Notes: generated from the letters alone by a model not told the origin. DNA of 64,000 nucleotides from Myxococcota bacterium (GCA_965250285.1 OZ252299.1:5024001-5088000); one strand, 5' to 3'; positions 15,181 to 54,402 are shown, counted from the first letter of the stretch. Program-made: numbers and translations.

Positions 15181-15257
15181 GCGCGCGGGATTGACATCGA
15201 CTCCAGCAGAGACGGCGAGCGCCGCGGGCCGAATCTGCGACACGCGAAAGGAATGAC

Positions 15258-16382
15258 ATGAGCAACATGATGGACAAGCTCCGAGCCGAACTGATCGACA
15301 TCGTCGAGTGGATCGACGACAGCCGCCACACGCTGGTCTGGCGCTTCCCGCGCTACCACAACCAGATCAAGCATGGCGCTCAGCTGATCGTGCGCCCGGG
15401 GCAGTCCGCCGTGCTCGTGAGTCAGGGACGGATCGCCGACGTGTTCGGCCCGGGTCAGTATCGCCTCGAGACCAAGAACCTGCCGATCCTGTCGACCCTG
15501 ATGGGCTGGAAGTACGGCTTCGACAGCCCCTTCAAGGCCGAGGTCTACTTCGTCAGCACGAAGCAGCTGACCGACATGAAGTGGGGCACGCCGAACCCGG
15601 TCATCATGCGCGATCCCGACTTCGGGCCGGTGCGCCTGCGCGCGTTCGGCTCGTACACGATCCGCGCTCTGGACCCGCGGCTGCTCCTCAAGGAGCTCGT
15701 GGGGACCGACCAGGAGTTCGAGGCCGACGAGGTGAGCGAATTGCTTCGCTCGATCATCAACATGGCGTTCGCCGACGTGGTCGCGAGCGCGAACCTCTCG
15801 GTCGTCGATCTGGCGTCGAACTACGCCGATCTCTCCGAGCAGGTCCGCCAGGCCGTGGTCGAGCGCATCGACGACGAGTTCGGCCTCGAGATTCCGCAGC
15901 TCTACATCGTGAACGTGTCGCTGCCGCCCGAGGTCGAGAAGGCGCTCGACGCGCGCAGCGGCATGGGCATGGTCGGTGACCTGCAGCGCTTCCAGGCCTA
16001 CCAGATCGGCCAGGCGATCCCCGACGCGGCGGCGAACCCCGCCGGCGGCATCGCCGGTGCCGGCCTCGGCGTGGGCATGGGCATGGCCATGGCCGGGCCG
16101 ATGATGGGCCAGATGGGCCAGGCCGGGGGCGCCGGTGCTCCGCCGAGCGGCAGTCCGCCCCCGATGCCGGCCCCGGCCAGCTGGTGGTTCGCCGAGAATG
16201 GTCAGCAGGTGGGCCCGGCAACGTTCGATCAGCTCGCTCAGGCCGTCGCCGCGGGGCGCCTCACGCCGGCCACGCTCGTCTGGAGCCAGGGCATGCCGGC
16301 CTGGCAGGCCGCGCAGCAGACGCCGCAGCTCGCGTCGCTCTTCGCTGCCGCCGGCCCGCCGCCCGTCCCGCCGGTCGAGTAG
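15258..16382 (+). CDS. SPFH/band-7 protein (YdjI-like) with C-terminal GYF_2/DUF4339 domain
   Basis: IDIVEWIDDS..LVWRFP, SPFKAEVYFV, KWGTPNP; C-terminal NGQQVGP...TLVWSQGMPAW. Confidence 0.9.
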   Translation: MSNMMDKLRAELIDIVEWIDDSRHTLVWRFPRYHNQIKHGAQLIVRPGQSAVLVSQGRIADVFGPGQYRLETKNLPILSTLMGWKYGFDSPFKAEVYFVSTKQLTDMKWGTPNPVIMRDPDFGPVRLRAFGSYTIRALDPRLLLKELVGTDQEFEADEVSELLRSIINMAFADVVASANLSVVDLASNYADLSEQVRQAVVERIDDEFGLEIPQLYIVNVSLPPEVEKALDARSGMGMVGDLQRFQAYQIGQAIPDAAANPAGGIAGAGLGVGMGMAMAGPMMGQMGQAGGAGAPPSGSPPPMPAPASWWFAENGQQVGPATFDQLAQAVAAGRLTPATLVWSQGMPAWQAAQQTPQLASLFAAAGPPPVPPVE

Positions 16383-45501: not shown

Positions 45502-45770
45502 GCTGTGCCAGGGCCGGGGCAGGCGGGGGCACCGTGCTCAGACATTCTCGGCGCGATCCGCCAGGGAAGCTCGTTTGCCGCGCACGTCGCGCCTGCGAAC
45601 TGCGCGCGGTACCCCCGCCTGCCCCGGCCTCGAGAGGCTGTGCCAGGGCCGGGGCAGGCGGGGGCACCGTGCTCAGACATTCTCGGCGCGACCTGCCTGG
45701 GAAGCTCGTTTGTTGCGCACGTCGCGCCTGCGAACTGCGCGCGGTACCCCCGCCTGCCCCGGCCTCGGGA
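45502..45770. repeat. Two tandem 135-bp copies of a long-hairpin element with 23-bp terminal inverted repeats (REP/MITE-like)
   Basis: Units start at 45502 and 45637; arms GGCCGGGGCAGGCGGGGGCACCG / CGGTACCCCCGCCTGCCCCGGCC (1 mismatch). Confidence 0.9.
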
Positions 45771-45847
45771 CGTTTTGGTCGCAGCGCAGCGCGCTCCCCC
45801 AGGAAGCGCTCGCGGCGGGTGCGTGGGGCGAGTTCTGCAGGGCATCC

Positions 45848-46696
45848 CTAGCCGAGCACGTGGTAGCCCCCGTCGACGTGTCGAATCTCGCCGGTGATGC
45901 CGACGCCGCGTCGCAGCAGATGGCAGACCTCGTAGGCCAGCGCGTCGGGGCTGGCGTTGCCGAGCGGCGACTGCGCGTTGGCGCGTGCCTCCGCGTCGGA
46001 GAGGCCGGGGATCGCCCCGCCCGCGCGCGAGGCACTGTAGGGCGAGAATCGGATCGCGTTGACGCGCGTCTGCCGGTCGCGTCCGAGCTCGACGGCGAGC
46101 TCGGTCACGATGCGCTCGAGCGCGGCCTTCGCCACGCCGACGTTCCGATACGGGTGCGTCACTGAGCGTTCGGCCCCGATGTAGCTGAGCGCGACGAGCG
46201 AGGCGCCTCCACTCAGACGGCCCGTCTCGAGGAGCGCTCGCGTGAGCGCGATCATCGAGTAGGCCGACACGTTCATACACTCGAGGAACGCATCGCGGGG
46301 CGTGTCGATGAGGCGCGGGCTCTGGTCGCCTCGAATCGTGCGATCGAACGCCACGGCGTGGACGACGCCGTCGACGCACACGTCGAGATCAACGAGCGCC
46401 GCGCCGAGCGAAGCGAGGCTCTCGTCATTCGAGACGTTGCAGTCGAGCGTGGGCACATCCGCGCCGAGCTCGGCCTCGACCGTCTTGCGGAAGCCTTCGA
46501 AGCTCGATCGCAGGTGATCGAGGGCGCGCTCCGACGTCTCGGGCGGCGCGTGCTGCGGCCCGAGGCCTGTGCACAACAGGCGCGCACCCTGACGACGGAT
46601 CTCCCGCGCGATCGGAAGGGCAAGCGAGGCTTCGTCGGTGATCCCCGTGACGAGCACGCATCGGTCGGAGAGGGGGCCGGGTGATTCGACGTGCAT
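45848..46696 (-). CDS. fabI: Enoyl-ACP reductase (FabI-like SDR)
   Basis: LVTGITDEASLA, VHAVAF, SAYS, LSYIGAER...YRNVGVAKAALE, HVDGG. Confidence 0.8.
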   Translation of the reverse strand: MHVESPGPLSDRCVLVTGITDEASLALPIAREIRRQGARLLCTGLGPQHAPPETSERALDHLRSSFEGFRKTVEAELGADVPTLDCNVSNDESLASLGAALVDLDVCVDGVVHAVAFDRTIRGDQSPRLIDTPRDAFLECMNVSAYSMIALTRALLETGRLSGGASLVALSYIGAERSVTHPYRNVGVAKAALERIVTELAVELGRDRQTRVNAIRFSPYSASRAGGAIPGLSDAEARANAQSPLGNASPDALAYEVCHLLRRGVGITGEIRHVDGGYHVLG

Positions 46697-46777: not shown

Positions 46778-49276
46778 TCAGGCCTCGACCCAGACGCCGG
46801 GTTCGGCGGTGCGGCGAAGCAGGGGGGCTTCTGCGCTCGTCCAGGCCATCAGGTGGATCCAGCCATTCTCGACGAGCTCGCGGACGTGCTCGTGCCGGGC
46901 GAGCACTGCATCGAGATCATCGGGTGCCGCAGCGATGATCGCCGTCAGCTTGAGTGGCTCGTGCAGGTAGCGCTCGCCGTCGTGCACCGACTGCCAGGGC
47001 AACCCGACCTGCAGGTCGCTTGCGTTGCCGAGCTGCACCCCGTGTCGTCCGACCACGTTGTGGAGCGCCTTGTGGCCGCTGCCGAACGTGACGTTGTCGG
47101 TCGTCGACGCGAAGTACTGCAGGTTGATCCAGCTCGCGACGACGAGCGGCGCGGTCATGATCAGCTCGAGCACACTGCCTTCGGCATCGTCGCTCGCCTG
47201 GTAGTCGTGCAGGAACGTGCGCCCTCCGAGGTCGGTGCCCGTGGTCCAGGCCCGCGGCGCCGCGATGAATGCCGCGTTGCCGGCGAGGCCCCACTCGGGG
47301 CGTACTTCGGACCAGTCGCGCGATCGGCCCTGGATGCGCTTCGCGAGGTTGCCCTGCGCCCGCTCTCCGAGGTCGGGGGCGCGCTCGCATCGCGTGGCCG
47401 CCGTGGCGTCGTCGATCCACTGCTGGATGCGCGCACTCAGCTTGGGGTCGATCGAAGGCGCATCGAAGAACTCGACCGTGTCGCAGGTCGTGTCGTGCAG
47501 ACCGGCGATGAACACCGTGTCGTCGGGGATGTCGATGCCGCGTTCGGCGAGCCCGGCGCGGACATCGGGCGACTGGAGCGCCGCCGCCGCGACGCGCGCA
47601 TTCACATCGCCTCGGTGGCCGCCGCATGCGCCGCAGTCCAGGCCGGACGCGTAGGGGTTGTTCGTCGAGGTGCTGCCATGCCCGCAGATCAGCACGACTC
47701 GAGCGAAGTCTCGCACGAGACCCATGTTGCGCAGCGCTCCCTCGGCGAGGTCGATCTGCATGTCGAGTGTCAGACCGCTCTCGTGGTCGTGCGACGCATC
47801 GAGGCGCGGCGCGAAGCTCGAGTCGACCTCGCGCGCCCCCGGCCGGGTCCAGCCCAGCGAATCCGAGATCAGCCGACCGGCGAACCCCAGGCCGAGCGTC
47901 TCGACGAAGGGATACGCGAGGACCGAGAGCTTTCGAAGCGAACTCAGCCAAGCGGCGCTGTCTCGCTCGCCGACGAGGCGCTTCTCGTCGTTGTGAGAGC
48001 CTTCGCTGCAGACTCGGGCCGCCGGAGACAGGAGCACCGGGCACCGTGCGGAGCCGCTCGTCTGACCGACACCGACGTGTTCGAGTGCGAAGCCGAAGAA
48101 GCCGGCGAAGCCGATCGTGCGAATGCCCGGCGACTGCGCTTCGAGGTGTCGTCTCAGGACCTCCGAGCGCACGTCGATGCAGAACACGGCCTGGAGGTCG
48201 GGGCGCTCGGTTGTCGTCTCGCGGCCCGGCCCGGCCGTCAGGCGGCCGAGGAGCGCGTGCTGATACCCGAGCTCGTAGGCGTGCTGCCAGACGATTCGGC
48301 GCCCGGCGTCGCTCAAGAGTCCGCTCGGCGCGTCGCTCGCGGTCAAGTGACCCGCGCGCCGCAGCCTCAGCTGGTCGGGGGCCATCCGGTCGATCGCCCC
48401 GTCGAAGGCGATGCGCATGGCGAGCAGGTGCACGATGGTGTCGTCGACGTGGCCCACGAGTCGCGCCTCGTGATCGAGCCGTCGTGCGTAGCCCGCCCAG
48501 CCGGCGATCGTCGCGAGGGCCCGTGTCATGAACGGCACCCGCTGCTCGTGCGGAACGCCGATCTGTAGCAGCACCTTGGCGATCACCTCGACCGGGTCGT
48601 GGGGCAGGTCGCGTACGTAGTCGCGAAAGCCCGAGAGTCCGAGCAGCTCGGGGCTGGGGTCGATCGTGGCGTGGCTGCGCCAGGCTTCGAAGAGCGGCCG
48701 ATCGCGGTCGGGCTGAGCCCACGCGCTCTCGCCGAGATCGAACCGGCCCGAGCACCACCGGGCAATCTCGCGCTCGGCGAGGGTCGCGAACTCGGTGTTG
48801 CCGACCCGATCGACGGCCTCGGCCACCGTCTCGACGCGGAGACTCGCCCCTCCGGCGGCTTGGCCGTCGGCGAGCAGGGCCTCGAGCAGGTCGTCGGTGG
48901 CGATCTCCGCGAGTTCGGTTCGCTCGAGCATGCGCGGGGCGTCGCCGAGGGCGGCCAGCACGTTCGGGTGCGCGATGCGCCCCTGCTCGTACTGCGCGCG
49001 GTAGAAGGCGCTCGACATCGTGACTTCGCCGTGCAGCAGCTGATCGATCTGGTGCACTGCGTTGGCGTAGGTCGAGTCGGAGAAGCCCATGAAGGGGTTC
49101 ACCGCGACGAAGTTGCGCAGGCTCCAGAGCGGCGCGATGCGCGACGCGGCCTGCTCGATCTCGCTGCGGATCGAGTCGTCGCGGGGTGCTTCGACCGGGT
49201 CGTGCAGCTCGACGACCTGAGCGTGTGCCTCGTCGGCCGAGGCCGATTCGATCGGAGATTCGAGCTGGAAACTCAT
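46778..49276 (-). CDS. dabA: Inorganic carbon transporter subunit DabA (DUF2309, beta-CA-like)
   Basis: IAPLWSLRNFVAVNPFMG, FCIDVRSE, CGHGS, LDCGACGG zinc ligands, WSEVRPEWGLAGNA, HEPLKL. Confidence 0.93.
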   Translation of the reverse strand: MSFQLESPIESASADEAHAQVVELHDPVEAPRDDSIRSEIEQAASRIAPLWSLRNFVAVNPFMGFSDSTYANAVHQIDQLLHGEVTMSSAFYRAQYEQGRIAHPNVLAALGDAPRMLERTELAEIATDDLLEALLADGQAAGGASLRVETVAEAVDRVGNTEFATLAEREIARWCSGRFDLGESAWAQPDRDRPLFEAWRSHATIDPSPELLGLSGFRDYVRDLPHDPVEVIAKVLLQIGVPHEQRVPFMTRALATIAGWAGYARRLDHEARLVGHVDDTIVHLLAMRIAFDGAIDRMAPDQLRLRRAGHLTASDAPSGLLSDAGRRIVWQHAYELGYQHALLGRLTAGPGRETTTERPDLQAVFCIDVRSEVLRRHLEAQSPGIRTIGFAGFFGFALEHVGVGQTSGSARCPVLLSPAARVCSEGSHNDEKRLVGERDSAAWLSSLRKLSVLAYPFVETLGLGFAGRLISDSLGWTRPGAREVDSSFAPRLDASHDHESGLTLDMQIDLAEGALRNMGLVRDFARVVLICGHGSTSTNNPYASGLDCGACGGHRGDVNARVAAAALQSPDVRAGLAERGIDIPDDTVFIAGLHDTTCDTVEFFDAPSIDPKLSARIQQWIDDATAATRCERAPDLGERAQGNLAKRIQGRSRDWSEVRPEWGLAGNAAFIAAPRAWTTGTDLGGRTFLHDYQASDDAEGSVLELIMTAPLVVASWINLQYFASTTDNVTFGSGHKALHNVVGRHGVQLGNASDLQVGLPWQSVHDGERYLHEPLKLTAIIAAAPDDLDAVLARHEHVRELVENGWIHLMAWTSAEAPLLRRTAEPGVWVEA

Positions 49277-50910
49277 CGGATGACTCCTTCAGCGGGATGG
49301 GTCGACCGCGAGGCGATCGGAGAGACGGGCCACAGCCGCGAGACCAGTCGATTCTGCAGCGTGCCGATGTGGAAGCCGCGCGAGGCGTGCACCCAGGCGG
49401 CGCGCCCCAGTCGGGTCGTGCGCGCCCAGGCGCCTGCATACTGCGCGGCGAACGCGATCGCGAAGAGCGTCACGATGGCGGCCGTGAGCGGCATCGGTGT
49501 GGTCGGGATCGCGGCGGCGCTCGGGATCGCGCTCGCGATCGCGGCTTCGAAGAGACCGACGCCGGCGAAGTAGAGCAGCGCGATGACGGCGCCGACGGCG
49601 GCTCCGCTCACGATCCGCATCAGGGGGTGGCCGACCCGGACAGGAGGCGCGAGCACGAGCTGCGCCGTCGCCAGGGCGAGAATCGAACCCAACACCGTCA
49701 ATCCAGGCTTGGAGGCGAGTTCGATCCCGAGCGCCCACACAGTGCTCGTGACGACGAAGGTCCCGCTCGCGAGCGCGAGCACGACCAGCCAGGGGCCGGG
49801 CGTGGTGCGTGCATCGAGCGCCTTCCGGGGCGTGGGATCCGGATCGACCACCGATCCTGATGCGAGGAATGCGTGGGCCTTGTAGAAGGCGTGGCCCACC
49901 ATGTGAAGCGTGGCTGCGGCGAATGCGCCGACGCCGCACTGGAGCATCATGAAGCCCATCTGCGCGACGGTCGAGTAGGCGTACTTCCGCTTGACGTCGG
50001 TCTGAGGGAGCATCGCGAGCGCACCGACCAGCGCCGTCACGGCGCCCCCGGCCGCCAGCCAGGGCATCACGGCCGGCGCTTCGACGAGCAGCGGGCTCAT
50101 GCGGATGAGCAGCAGCCCCCCCATGTTGATGATCCCGGCGTGCATGAGCGCCGACACCGGCGTCGGCGTCTCGAGCGAATCGGGCAGCCAGGTGTGGAAG
50201 GGGAACTGTGCCGACTTGGTCATCGCGCCGAGCACCAGGAGCACTGCGATCGGCACGGTGGTCGACGGGGCTGCCCCGGGCAGCAGCGCGAACAGCTCGT
50301 CGTACTGGAGCGTCCCGAAGTCGACGGCGACCATCGTGAATGCGGCGAGCAGGAACAGGTCGCCGAGCCGGCTGGTCACGAACTTCTTGCGCGCCGCCAG
50401 CTGTGCCGCGGGTCGATCCGCGAAATGGGTCAGGAGCCGATGGAGACCGTGGCTCGTGGCGATCCAGCCGACGAGCACCTGGAAGAGGTCGGCGGCGACG
50501 ACCAGCAGCAGGACCGCACTGAGGGTGTAGGCGATCCACTGGCTGAAGCCGGCCTGGTTCGGGTCGCCGTCCATGTAGCGGATCGAGAAGCGAGCGACGA
50601 CCGCACCGACCATCGTCACGGTCATGAGCAGGAGCGCCGTGAGGCCGTCGTAGCGAGCGCCGAGGCCGAGCTCGAGCTCGCCGACGACCGGCACCTGGAA
50701 GACGTAGGCCGTGGTCGGCGCGGCACCACTCGCGAGCGCCACCGCTCCGAGGCCGAGCGCGGCAGCGAAGGAGAGGGCCGCGCTGAGCGCGGTGGCCTGA
50801 CGTGCGCGCGCTGCGTCGAAGCGCGCCGCTCGCGAGACCGCGAAACCGACGGTGCCGGGGAGGAGCGCCGCGCAGAGCGCCAGCAGGGCCGTTTCGGATG
50901 AGATCCACAT
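49273..50910 (-). CDS. dabB: Inorganic carbon transporter membrane subunit DabB (NuoL/MrpA-like)
   Basis: KSAQFPFHTWLPDSLETPTPVSALMHAG, YSTVAQMGFM, HAFYKAHAFL; ATGA-coupled to dabA; GAGGAG RBS. Confidence 0.92.
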   Translation of the reverse strand: MWISSETALLALCAALLPGTVGFAVSRAARFDAARARQATALSAALSFAAALGLGAVALASGAAPTTAYVFQVPVVGELELGLGARYDGLTALLLMTVTMVGAVVARFSIRYMDGDPNQAGFSQWIAYTLSAVLLLVVAADLFQVLVGWIATSHGLHRLLTHFADRPAAQLAARKKFVTSRLGDLFLLAAFTMVAVDFGTLQYDELFALLPGAAPSTTVPIAVLLVLGAMTKSAQFPFHTWLPDSLETPTPVSALMHAGIINMGGLLLIRMSPLLVEAPAVMPWLAAGGAVTALVGALAMLPQTDVKRKYAYSTVAQMGFMMLQCGVGAFAAATLHMVGHAFYKAHAFLASGSVVDPDPTPRKALDARTTPGPWLVVLALASGTFVVTSTVWALGIELASKPGLTVLGSILALATAQLVLAPPVRVGHPLMRIVSGAAVGAVIALLYFAGVGLFEAAIASAIPSAAAIPTTPMPLTAAIVTLFAIAFAAQYAGAWARTTRLGRAAWVHASRGFHIGTLQNRLVSRLWPVSPIASRSTHPAEGVIR

Positions 50911-51032
50911 GGTGCCTGTCTCCTCGCCTCTCGATTCCGGGGCTCGAGCAAGCGGCCTGTGTGGTCCCGCTTCTTCGTTCTGCCCGTGCTGCGAGAGGCA
51001 CACCCACGTCGGCAACCCCTCGGCGCCGCTGC

Positions 51033-51157
51033 ATCGAACAACACGACATAGATTTCGTCAAGTGAGATTCGCAAAATAAATTTCTGCGCGTCCTGAGATC
51101 CATCTCGCGAAAAAAAAGCCATGAACTGATTGACACGAAATTTGTATCGGGTAATTG
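51033..51157. promoter_or_regulatory. AT-rich divergent promoter region with three imperfect ACGAAAT-N2-ATTTCGT palindromes
   Basis: Sites at 51043-51058, 51071-51086 and 51135-51150; minus-strand TTGACG-17nt-TTCGAT; plus-strand TTGACA at 51130. Confidence 0.65.
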
Positions 51158-51188
51158 AAGTCGCGTTTGCAAAGGAGGCCACCGAGCC

Positions 51189-51431
51189 ATGAGCAGCCCG
51201 ACCCATCCCCAGTTCCAACCCCTGCGGGGCGTCGATCGTTCCGAGAGCGGCGTCACCGCCCCCAGCTGGCCCCAGTGGATCCGCCGGCTCTTCCGAAGTC
51301 GGCCCCAGGCGATGCACGCGGTGGCCGAAGCCGAGACCCAGAGCGGCCAGGCGGGGACCCGCCCGGCCGAGCGCTCCCTGCTCGGCCCCGTGCGCACGGT
51401 GGTCGACCCGAAAGACATCTATCTGGCCTGA
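51189..51431 (+). CDS. Small hypothetical protein (80 aa)
   Basis: Strong AAGGAGG RBS; first gene after the divergent promoter; no recognised domain. Confidence 0.6.
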   Translation: MSSPTHPQFQPLRGVDRSESGVTAPSWPQWIRRLFRSRPQAMHAVAEAETQSGQAGTRPAERSLLGPVRTVVDPKDIYLA

Positions 51432-51489
51432 GCCTCGGCTCGCGTCCGGGCTCGGGCCGATGCTCGAGCCACCCCGAAAGGAGAACATC

Positions 51490-52029
51490 ATGTCCAGCGC
51501 CATGCCCATCTCGCTGCAGCGGCACCAGCACCTCTCGAACCTCAGTGAGCAGGCCGGCCAGCTCGCATCCGAGAGCGCCGATTGCCTCGTGCTCTTCAGC
51601 GCCGCGGCCGGGACGAACGCCAAGCCCGGATGGGCTCGGGCTCTTCCGAACGCCCTGCAGCTTCAGGCCCCCGGTGCCGAGGTCGACGACGGCGACCTGC
51701 GCGACGCGGTCCGCCACGCCGTGCACGAGCTCGGCGTCAGTGAAGTCCTCGTGATCCTGCACACCGGCTGCCCGACGCTAAAGCCGAACGACGAGTCGCC
51801 GATGACCCGACCCGAGCCGAACGATCTGATGGGTCGGATCCAGGTCAACCGCCAGCGCACCGAGGCGTCCCACGAGGCGGCAAAGCAGCGCGTGCGCGTG
51901 GCCGTTGGCTCGCTGTCGGCGGATGCATCGCTCGGCGACGTATCGGTGGGGGGCCTCGTCCACATCGATGAGAGCGGCGTGATGTTGAGCTACGACGCGA
52001 GCCGCGATGCCTTCGAGGCGCTGTTGTAG
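51490..52029 (+). CDS. Degenerate beta-carbonic-anhydrase homolog (HxxC kept, CxDxR lost)
   Basis: Aligns by eye with the neighbouring CA: AVRHAVHELGVSEVLVILHTGC vs TIEYAVRVLGVQYAIVCGHSKC; AAGGAG RBS. Confidence 0.7.
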   Translation: MSSAMPISLQRHQHLSNLSEQAGQLASESADCLVLFSAAAGTNAKPGWARALPNALQLQAPGAEVDDGDLRDAVRHAVHELGVSEVLVILHTGCPTLKPNDESPMTRPEPNDLMGRIQVNRQRTEASHEAAKQRVRVAVGSLSADASLGDVSVGGLVHIDESGVMLSYDASRDAFEALL

Positions 52030-52212
52030 ACAGCGCCGAGCGCGATCGCGGCACACCGCGCCATGCGGTGACGTCGCGATGCGGGCGGGGTCGATGGGGG
52101 CACCGCTCGGTCCGGCCCGCGAGGTGCCGGCCGATGTGTCTCGTGTTCGTCGGCGTCGAGCGCGGGCGCCGCTGGATGCCGGTGGCGCCCGCTCAGGTCG
52201 CCGACGCTCGAA

Positions 52213-52566
52213 TCAGGGCGCGTCCTGCTCGATCATGTCGACGAGGTCGGCGATGCGACGATGCGCTTCGATCGGGTGGCGGAGCGGCGCCGACAGCGCG
52301 AACCGATAGTGGTTGCGCAGACCCTTGCGTTCGCGGATCACATAGCCGGCCTCTTCGAGCTCGCCGAGGATGCGCTGCACCGATCGCTCGGTGATCCCGA
52401 CGAGGTTGGCCACCTCGCGGAGCGTCAGATCGGGATCGCGGTGAAGTGAGATCAGCACGTGCGTGTGGTTCGACAAGAAGGTCCACTTGGGTCCTTCGCC
52501 GTCGGGCTCGGAGCGGCGCGCCGACTTGGCGGCTGCCTTCTTCGCCTTCTTCGCTCGTGCTGCCAT
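52213..52566 (-). CDS. Small winged-HTH transcriptional regulator
   Basis: WTFLSNHTHVL...LREVANLVGITERSVQRILGELEEAGY...GLRNHY...PLRHP. Confidence 0.88.
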   Translation of the reverse strand: MAARAKKAKKAAAKSARRSEPDGEGPKWTFLSNHTHVLISLHRDPDLTLREVANLVGITERSVQRILGELEEAGYVIRERKGLRNHYRFALSAPLRHPIEAHRRIADLVDMIEQDAP

Positions 52567-52774
52567 TCATCAACCCCAAGCTTTCGGTCGGCCGCAGCCG
52601 CGAACGCCGCGTTGGGCAGGTGCGAATGCCCGTCGACGTCGCCCCGCGAAAGATAGACGGCCCGCAGCGACTCGTCTGCCCGGCCAACCGAGGCGTATTG
52701 CGGGTCTCGGTTCGATCCTGTTTCCTCCTGCGAGGCGACTGCTCTGGTCGCCGCAGGCAGGAGATCCCATTCGC

Positions 52775-53383
52775 ATGGACGAGCTCATCGACGGCGTTCG
52801 CCGCTTCCAGTCGGACGTGTTTCCGTCTCGGCAACCGCTGTTCGAGTCGCTGGGTGCCGGGCAGCAGCCGCGGGCGCTGCTCGTGACCTGCTCCGATTCG
52901 CGCATCGATCCGTCGCTCTTCACCCAGACCGAGCCGGGTGAGCTCTTCGTCGTCCGGAACGCCGGCAACATCGTCCCGCCGGCCTCGGCGGGCACCGGCG
53001 GCGAGTCGGCCACGATCGAGTACGCCGTGCGCGTGCTCGGCGTCCAGTACGCGATCGTGTGCGGCCACAGCAAGTGTGGGGCGATGGCTGCAGCCGCCGA
53101 TCCAGAGAGCGCCGCGGAGCTGCCCCAGGTGAGTGAGTGGATCCGGTTCGCCGAAGAGGCGGTTCCGGCCGCGTCGGCCTTCTCGTCCGAGCCCGATGAA
53201 GCGCTCAGGGTGGTGGCGGCCAACGTGCTGCTGCAGCTCGACCATTTGCGCTCGCATCCCGCCGTCGCCGAGGCCGAGGCCGACGGCCGTCTCGAGCTGC
53301 ATGGCTGGATCTACCGCTTCGAGACCGGTGAGGTGTTGGTCGTCGACCCCAGCGGTGTGCTCCACGGCCTGAGCGAAGTCTGA
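52775..53383 (+). CDS. can: Beta-class carbonic anhydrase
   Basis: CSDSR, GELFVVRNAGNIVP, CGHSKCGAM, LHGWIY; AGGAG RBS. Confidence 0.93.
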   Translation: MDELIDGVRRFQSDVFPSRQPLFESLGAGQQPRALLVTCSDSRIDPSLFTQTEPGELFVVRNAGNIVPPASAGTGGESATIEYAVRVLGVQYAIVCGHSKCGAMAAAADPESAAELPQVSEWIRFAEEAVPAASAFSSEPDEALRVVAANVLLQLDHLRSHPAVAEAEADGRLELHGWIYRFETGEVLVVDPSGVLHGLSEV

Positions 53384-53410
53384 CCCGCACGACCCCGATC
53401 GAGTGAGCTG

Positions 53411-54019
53411 ATGGTCCGAGACGACGGGGCGCTGCGACTCTCGAGCCGGCTCGAGGTCGTCGTGCTCGTACGGCACGGCGAGACGACCGGTGAGTCGAGC
53501 ATTCGCTACCACGGCGCGAACGACGTCCCGCTGAATCACGTCGGGCGCGCCCATGCTCGGACCGCGGCCGAGACGATCGGTGGACTCGCCTTCGATGCAC
53601 ATGTCTCGAGCTCGCTCAGCCGTGCCGTCGAGAGCGCCGAGATCATCCGGCCCGACGCCGAGATCGTGCGCGACGACGACCTGCGCGAGATCGACTTCGG
53701 TCGGTGGGAGGGGCTGACGCGGGAGGAGATCCGCGCGCTCGACCCCGAGCTCGATGCGGAGTGGACCCGGCTGGGCCTCGACTTCGACTTTCCCGATGGC
53801 GAGCGCCGGGCCGACTTCACGGCGCGCGTCGACCGCGGTCTCGCTCGGGCGTTCGCCCTCGACGTCGAGCGTCTGCTGGTGGTCGCGCACAAAGGCGTCG
53901 TCCGACGCGGCGTCGAGCTCCTGACACGCGAAGCCCCGCCGGCGCCGCATCCCGAGCTGGGCGAGGTGTTTTATCTGGTGCGCCGAGGCGAACGCTTCGT
54001 GCGGCGCTCCCGATCATGA
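53411..54019 (+). CDS. Histidine phosphatase family protein (PGM/CobC-like)
   Basis: LVRHGET, SSLSRA, LREIDFGRWEG, VAHKGV. Confidence 0.9.
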   Translation: MVRDDGALRLSSRLEVVVLVRHGETTGESSIRYHGANDVPLNHVGRAHARTAAETIGGLAFDAHVSSSLSRAVESAEIIRPDAEIVRDDDLREIDFGRWEGLTREEIRALDPELDAEWTRLGLDFDFPDGERRADFTARVDRGLARAFALDVERLLVVAHKGVVRRGVELLTREAPPAPHPELGEVFYLVRRGERFVRRSRS

Positions 54020-54402
54020 AGCTGCGAAGGCAGTACCACTTCTGGCCCGGGGCCGCGGGTCTCGAAGCCTGGGACGTGCACCGCTTGATCGAGCTCGCGA
54101 GAGGCCTGCCCGTCTCGAGCGTGCCGCTGTCGCAGATCGACGAGGTCGACACCGTCTACTGGTACGACGGCGATCTGCACCGGCCCACGGTCCGGAGCGT
54201 GATCGAGCACGCGAAGCTGATGCAGGCCGCCGACCTCGACTACCCGATCATCCTGGCGAGCGACGGCCGCGTCATGGATGGCATGCATCGCGTGGCCAAG
54301 GCGCTGCTCGAGGGCCGCGAGACGATCGACGCGGTGCGATTCGAGACCGACCCGCCGCCCGACTACGTCGGCGTGTCGCCTCGCGATCTTCCCTACGACT
54401 AG
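54016..54402 (+). CDS. Small stand-alone ParB/Srx-like domain protein
   Basis: ADLDYPIIL..DGRVMDGMHRVAKA; ATGA-coupled to the phosphatase. Confidence 0.75.
   Translation: MKLRRQYHFWPGAAGLEAWDVHRLIELARGLPVSSVPLSQIDEVDTVYWYDGDLHRPTVRSVIEHAKLMQAADLDYPIILASDGRVMDGMHRVAKALLEGRETIDAVRFETDPPPDYVGVSPRDLPYD

Follow-up and report, generated by a model that had tools for sequence, protein, structure and literature searches.

Inorganic-carbon pumps of the DAB type are known from DAB2 (DabA2/DabB2) of Halothiobacillus neapolitanus (PDB 9rd0) and from MpsAB of Staphylococcus aureus, and DABs in heterotrophs have already been noted (10.1101/476713). The ndhF-mpsB(ybcC)-canC(ybcF) operon of Bacillus subtilis unites a pump and a beta-carbonic anhydrase (beta-CA) in one locus of a heterotroph, with redundant bicarbonate supply, and its regulatory mechanisms are described as still to be explored (10.64898/2026.09.08.750065). 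Here we analyzed a DabB-DabA pump locus of a Myxococcota bacterium, situated in a 64,000-nt stretch of DNA (GCA_965250285.1 OZ252299.1:5024001-5088000; hereafter the window), which encodes also a winged-helix (wHTH) regulator. Our comparative analyses in silico make it probable that this protein controls a low-inorganic-carbon regulon via a conserved palindrome located at the pump cassette.

As in DAB2 and MpsAB, the pump consists of two genes, dabB and dabA, and carries four zinc ligands. DabA aligned over its full length with H. neapolitanus DabA2 (9rd0, E 4e-155), with C366, D368, H533 and C548 as the ligands, in agreement with the intact C/D/H/C set reported in an earlier note on this DNA. 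The two reading frames overlap by 4 bp, and there is a single adjacent DabB and no third membrane subunit. Judged by its sequence, the pump is an ordinary, intact DAB2-type member, predicted to convert CO2 to bicarbonate. The features of the pump cassette and its predicted control are as follows.

51041..51060, unstranded: predicted operator 1, over the TTGACG -35 of the dabB promoter (21.4 bits, genome rank 3)
51133..51152, unstranded: predicted operator 2, in the small-ORF promoter, whose spacer it fills (TTGACA at 51130-51135, 16 nt, TAATTG; 19.3 bits, rank 4)
52213..52566, minus strand: winged-helix regulator of the WTF[LF]xNH ... LRHP family, predicted palindrome binder (HTH_24/MarR_2 matches)
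49273..50910, minus strand: DabB, membrane subunit (PF00361 168 bits and PF00662 40 bits)
46778..49276, minus strand: DabA, zinc subunit of a DAB2-type vectorial carbonic anhydrase (PF10070 807 bits)
45848..46696, minus strand: divergent FabI-like enoyl reductase, likely the third gene of the dabB-dabA transcript (PF13561 131 bits)

The predicted operator and its regulator

The 20-bp palindrome, ACACGAAAT-NN-ATTTCGTGT, was derived by de novo motif discovery in the regions preceding dabB in 11 further genomes of the class, with a discovery score of 291 vs. 116-127 in five shuffled sets. The source genome, a single 6.25-Mb contig of 95% completeness, was held out from this discovery and contained only four sites above 16 bits. 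Two of these, operators 1 and 2, lie within the 280-bp gap between dabB and an open reading frame (ORF) of 80 aa, and their arrangement relative to the promoter elements is not confined to this locus: the geometry of operator 1 recurs at 11 other sites and the TTGACN-16-TA geometry of operator 2 at 12 other loci. The top-scoring site (22.7 bits, C1:3616583) precedes a gene for a PRK09222-type isocitrate dehydrogenase (icd; C1:3616583-3618126, L164), while the fourth strong site (C1:5295689) precedes an ABC-HlyD-TolC exporter (C1:5295747-5300697, L165:5748-10698). The genes at both distant sites are of types found independently next to the wHTH gene in other phyla, and this is the strongest single result of the analysis. 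A further operator-like match of 15.1 bits at window positions 15242-15261 covers the start of a 374-aa gene and is probably due to chance or to overlap with a ribosome-binding site.

To place the regulator in its genomic neighbourhoods, we surveyed 225 genomes of the class and the GTDB collection. The GTDB scan yielded at least 596 relatives, from which the best 80 were kept and three duplicates of class loci removed, leaving 77 outside loci; by record titles they belong to Planctomycetota, Myxococcota, Verrucomicrobiota, Armatimonadota, Bdellovibrionota, Pseudomonadota, Actinomycetota and Acidobacteriota. Within the class the regulator was detected in 28 of 225 genomes (29 matches), and 26 of the 29 matches lie near a gene of inorganic-carbon (Ci) metabolism. 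Seventeen are within 7 kb of dabA; the others are found in sbtA-sbtB-fabI-like-wHTH-purE-purK operons (three), or by a beta-CA gene (three), purE (one), a pyruvate carboxylase gene (one) or a degenerate beta-CA gene followed by purEK (one). This supports the earlier note's proposal of a pump locus with its own regulator; the note had overlooked the operator, the role of the fabI-like gene in the cassette and the distant members of the regulon.

A similar picture emerged outside the class. Ci-supply genes (dabA/B, sbtA, SulP or beta-CA) accompany the regulator in 26 of the 77 loci, Ci-demand genes (purE/K, bioD, larB or carboxyltransferase) in 11 and icd in 15; at least one of these three categories is present in 45/77 loci, compared with a baseline of 13/446 tiles of the source genome. 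An ABC-HlyD exporter occurs in 11/77. Sites above 14 bits were detected within 450 nt upstream of the wHTH gene in 27/77 loci (dinucleotide shuffles: mean 0.18, maximum 1), and in 7 of 253 other promoter-bearing gaps, all seven before dabB or sbtA operons. No site above 12 bits was present in five dabA loci devoid of the regulator (L013-L015, L063, L064), nor in the LysR-linked beta-CA/SulP locus of the source genome.

Several neighbours deserve separate mention. In L146, L143 and L113 the wHTH gene adjoins bioD and larB, or bioD and purEK, and none of these loci has a strong operator; both BioD and LarB use CO2 or bicarbonate. DUF6671 is also present in four outside loci with icd. The ABC-HlyD-TolC exporter has no family assignment, and in about 11 outside loci (e.g., L106, L120, L122, L124 and L129) it and the wHTH gene are divergently arranged.

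The regulator itself is a protein of 117 aa with no LysR domains and no separate effector domain. It exceeds the Pfam cut-offs narrowly (MarR_2 33.7 vs. 27, MarR 26.7 vs. 24.6) and matches no specific NCBIfam family. Structure comparison retrieved no solved close relative: the best structures gave TM 0.5-0.6 at about 20% identity, with AspA as near as any MarR. The family comprises at least 7969 clusters at E<=1e-20, which bear generic names only, and has four nearly invariant His positions.

Since the predicted site fills the -35/-10 spacer, a usual position for repressors, the protein is probably a repressor, released when CO2 or bicarbonate is short. It would bind the palindrome at the -35 regions of two promoters, that of dabB-dabA-fabI-like and that serving the small ORF and the degenerate beta-CA gene, and low CO2/bicarbonate would relieve this repression. 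Supply would then be raised, by DabAB here and by SbtAB, SulP or beta-CA elsewhere, and internal CO2 production may be increased via isocitrate dehydrogenase; in B. subtilis, raised internal CO2 output can bypass the need for CA and pump (10.64898/2026.09.08.750065). Enzymes coping with low carbon (PurE-PurK, BioD, LarB and carboxylases) would be added in other genomes, and PurK was documented to matter at low dissolved inorganic carbon (DIC) (PMC10880623). At the present locus, the second, divergent enoyl reductase could draw fatty-acid elongation forward when malonyl-CoA is in short supply. The signal might be bicarbonate, pH or a metabolite such as 2-oxoglutarate, as for cyanobacterial NdhR (PMC8042125).

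Cassette and accessory genes

DabA is present in 36 of the 225 class genomes. Two of its loci are unusual. In G142, DabB and DabA are naturally fused into one protein of 1349 aa, encoded beside a LysR gene (L063:10-4059). A DabA locus of G005 (L015:9124-17160; labels read from sequence, no family scan) is longer and of another kind: it includes two DabB-like genes, an HTH/PTS-EIIA-like gene and a gene for an SLC4-like transporter, and lacks both the wHTH gene and the operator. LysR and tandem-Usp genes recur next to dab loci of the class.

The FabI-like gene follows dabA after an 81-bp gap in which no terminator was called. Its product aligns Y172, Y183 and K190 with the FabI catalytic positions (Tyr...Tyr-x6-Lys); in FabI these Tyr/Tyr/Lys residues have a catalytic role. 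The protein falls under every NCBIfam FabI cut-off (best 117.5 vs. 299), as do its orthologues, which share 51-65% identity and occur in 29/225 class genomes. Nineteen of the 29 coincide with the 28 genomes encoding the regulator, vs. 3.6 expected under independence, related genomes not being independent of one another. We examined 28 FabI-like loci (G162 was left out, and G172 and G174 were judged by coordinates only): 19 adjoin dabA, sbtAB, purEK or beta-CA, or stand directly behind the operator, three adjoin LysR and exporter genes, and six are without any link. On this comparative ground the divergent fabI is a cassette member. The earlier note placed fabI correctly beside the locus but took it for a mere flank, while in fact it travels with the cassette. 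A separate FabV/Ter-type reductase is encoded elsewhere in the genome.

Opposite the pump genes, and downstream of operator 2, lie the accessory genes and an intact beta-CA gene.

51189..51431, plus strand: small ORF of 80 aa, variable body and C-terminal motif [RQ][TS]xxDP[RK]xIYLA-stop (no family match)
51490..52029, plus strand: pseudo-beta-carbonic anhydrase (pseudo-CA; PF00484 18 bits, cut-off 25.7; beta-CA fold in model)
52148..52206, unstranded: GC-rich inverted repeat, possible terminator between the convergent pseudo-CA and wHTH genes (28-nt arms, 79% complementary; function inferred)
52775..53383, plus strand: intact beta-CA, cassette-linked, no operator (PF00484 157 bits)

All ORFs named in the earlier note (dabB-dabA, the 80-aa ORF, the degenerate beta-CA, the regulator and the intact beta-CA) were found in place. 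Its span, however, also took in two riders downstream of the intact beta-CA, a histidine-phosphatase gene and an overlapping 128-aa ORF of no family (window 53411-54402), which were rejected as parts of the system (0/138 related loci). On the other side of the cassette, window positions 45502-45771 hold two tandem 135-nt elements with terminal inverted repeats, MITE/REP-like, with 42 genome copies (about 93-95% identity in the top rows). An Rfam scan gave hairpin matches on a repeat only, all sub-threshold.

The AlphaFold model of the pseudo-CA (pLDDT 89) matches beta-CA structures with TM of about 0.59 and probability 1.00. The protein keeps H91 and C94; its first Cys is lost (C37S), and so is the Asp-Arg pair. 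Profile search detected the family in 8/225 class genomes, all eight with DabA and the regulator as well, and such co-occurrence bears out the accessory genes conserved with dabAB that the earlier note had proposed. In seven of the eight, a single contig carries the gene in divergent orientation to dabB; the eighth locus is split at contig ends. In three, purE-purK follow directly. A sample of 301 genomes from the phylum added no members; matches in G049 and G060 of the class and four matches from the phylum, at 54-64 bits, were dropped as ordinary beta-CAs with CxDxR. The pseudo-CA is likely a non-catalytic accessory binding zinc or bicarbonate.

An alternative for this single gene, compatible with the regulon reading, is that the family represents an active divergent zinc enzyme, a slow CA or a COS/CS2 hydrolase, of which only the present copy is decaying. 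The family counts 26 representatives at 50% identity. All three zinc ligands (Cys, His, Cys) are kept in 18 of 26 aligned rows and a Glu or Asp stands two residues past the first Cys in 20, which agrees with an enzyme, and the frameshifted pseudo-CA of G102, located between an intact small ORF and purE-purK (L058:10845-11140; decay or assembly error), illustrates that the gene can decay. Yet CxDxR is not conserved in the family, being mostly CxE with Arg in 7/26, and the copy studied here is full-length, with a relative at 59% identity. We regard an active enzyme as possible but rather doubtful.

The motif of the small ORF was found in eight class genomes, the scores being clearly separated (48 vs. 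27 bits), and on eight metagenome contigs. Its D, P, I, Y, L and A are invariant across 15 rows, while the body differs in both length and sequence between relatives. Synonymous codon changes indicate that selection acts on the peptide. The small ORF is the first ORF past the promoter wherever the contig shows it and is usually followed by the pseudo-CA gene; in the near-identical contigs L076 and L079 it leads straight into purE. An obligate pairing of the two genes was rejected, given these two contigs, the frameshifted pseudo-CA of G102 and the lack of the ORF in G075. The peptide likely acts via its last 13 residues, possibly as a binding tail or as a leader peptide. Taken together, the pseudo-CA and the small ORF are class-restricted add-ons, dispensable for the regulator elsewhere.

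Weighing of the regulon reading and its alternatives

A number of observations weigh against a low-Ci regulon. The outside loci are the closest 80 of at least 596 relatives, thus not a random sample, and many are short contigs; icd and the exporter became scoring categories only after inspection of the data, and score thresholds were set by the authors. Eighteen of the 77 loci have no scored neighbour at all, and in seven the neighbours (TerC, Na/H or Na/Ca exchangers, HtpX) could suggest pH or ion stress. Of the 28 FabI-like loci inspected, nine are without a Ci connection. In the source genome, neither purE-purK nor the four biotin-carboxylase genes have a site, and a simple promoter scan called no sigma-70 promoter at the locus. 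A loose IUPAC form of the operator discriminates poorly, as it occurs in 53/225 class genomes (16/28 with the regulator and 37/197 without it). Finally, the exporter has no evident link to carbon.

In a wider form of the low-Ci reading, the family, with thousands of members in at least eight phyla by record titles, would be a dedicated CO2/bicarbonate-sensing transcription factor of non-autotrophs that coordinates carbon capture, CO2 release by icd and low-carbon steps of purine, biotin and fatty-acid synthesis, with the class-specific pseudo-CA and the C-terminal-motif peptide as a second sensing layer. We put this forward tentatively.

The same regulator and operator could instead serve an alkaline-pH or sodium-stress regulon, including Ci genes as pH shifts CO2 availability, with the conserved His residues reading pH. 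The seven loci with ion-exchange or HtpX genes fit this idea, as do Mrp-type subunits in L149 and L158, the four nearly invariant His positions of the family and a LysR gene recurrent beside the wHTH gene, whose product presumably resembles NhaR. At the same time, supply, demand and icd neighbours (45/77) far exceed ion/pH genes, and PurK, BioD and LarB are CO2/bicarbonate users rather than pH effectors (for BioD and LarB, as a matter of general biochemistry), so that a regulon of this kind appears unlikely.

The earlier note had proposed a regulated switch between the pump and a free cytosolic CA, which would avoid a futile cycle. The divergent arrangement it described was borne out by the positions of both genes, and the beta-CA is intact, with CSDSR (at 39) and HSKC (at 98) motifs. 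The wHTH gene stands back-to-back with an intact beta-CA gene also in L053, L068, L069, L071 and L077, and MpsAB and CA are said to 'rarely coexist' in one species (PMC8567241), both of which would suit a switch. Nevertheless, there is no operator in the gap between the two genes here (best matrix score 0.6 bits) or, in the same arrangement, in L053 (-3.9 bits), L077 (2.0 bits) and L071, and matches in L068 (13.1 bits) and L069 (8.1 bits) are weak. In four outside loci (L117, L128, L144, L161) a beta-CA gene in line with sbtA-sbtB shares one operator with them, which points to co-induction. Moreover, the fetched stretch has no intact CA at five of the seven other intact pseudo-CA loci. Pump and CA do coexist in some species (PMC8567241; 10.64898/2026.09.08.750065), B. 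subtilis encoding both together (10.64898/2026.09.08.750065). Because no site precedes the intact CA and CA and SbtA share an operator elsewhere, the switch is unsupported and we consider it very improbable. The intact beta-CA is likely expressed independently, adding to the pump rather than alternating with it.

Also very improbable is that another factor binds the palindrome, or that the palindrome is an alternative sigma promoter signature, with the wHTH gene merely riding along. In favour of this, the site and a conserved TTGAC overlap, several of the same class loci contain LysR and Usp genes, and weaker matches of up to 17.3 bits occur in genomes devoid of the regulator. On the other hand, the site has dyad symmetry, scores above 20 bits in 6/8 wHTH-positive vs. 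0/22 wHTH-negative loci (three of the six being training loci) and remains together with the wHTH gene across phyla, while LysR-linked dab loci lack it. The source genome has one more Ci locus of LysR type, a second beta-CA gene with SulP, divergent from LysR and without the wHTH operator (C1:3288944-3292163, L017). This LysR, too, presumably resembles NhaR.

Comparison with known systems

Whole-genome search for RuBisCO gave no match, while the same search was positive in 5/14 control genomes; the absence of RuBisCO from the window, pointed out in the earlier note, thus extends to the genome, carboxysome shell genes being without a genome-wide search. CdhC and PEP carboxylase were likewise not found in the genome. 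The search for ATP-citrate lyase matched none of the control genomes and carries no weight; the autotrophy-marker negatives are RuBisCO and CdhC. Four biotin-carboxylase-like matches and one purE-purK pair away from the cassette were detected. The host is likely a heterotroph, as the earlier note had supposed.

In the full-text literature we found no description of the regulator, operator, pseudo-CA, peptide or FabI-like gene, with most subscription papers, supplements and regulon databases outside the search; the predicted, widespread inorganic-carbon regulon is apparently undescribed. Fatty-acid, purine and anaplerotic steps of heterotrophs depend on bicarbonate, and regulation of its supply was left open in a recent paper (10.64898/2026.09.08.750065). 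With a named protein, an operator of 20 bp and a list of targets, the regulon is open to direct testing. The operator also offers a genome-mining handle for new inorganic-carbon genes, among them the divergent enoyl reductase, the pseudo-anhydrase, the small peptide and the ABC-HlyD-TolC exporter. The regulon may bear on the need of some bacteria for high CO2 or high cell density in growth, and it could yield a CO2-responsive switch for synthetic biology.

Unlike DAB2 and MpsAB, the pump described here has no carboxysome context and is tied to a wHTH regulator with a palindromic predicted operator, and to a FabI-like gene, a pseudo-CA and a small ORF. The FabI-like protein shares the fold family and the Tyr/Tyr/Lys positions of FabI enoyl-ACP reductases; in contrast to them it lies far under the FabI cut-offs, is patchy in distribution (29/225) and has an altered substrate-loop region. 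The B. subtilis operon differs in that canC is co-directional with the pump genes, and the accessible part of its description contains no regulator, operator or degenerate CA (10.64898/2026.09.08.750065). In regulatory logic the closest counterpart is cyanobacterial NdhR (CcmR), a single regulator over the alternative Ci uptake systems sbtA, bicA and ndhF3 (PMC8042125). NdhR, however, is a LysR protein with an effector domain that acts in autotrophs, whereas here a 117-aa winged helix is found in likely non-autotrophic hosts, with icd as well as CO2-using enzymes of biosynthesis among its predicted targets. The system would thus work like the NdhR regulon without being a member of it, as it differs in protein family, hosts and predicted targets.

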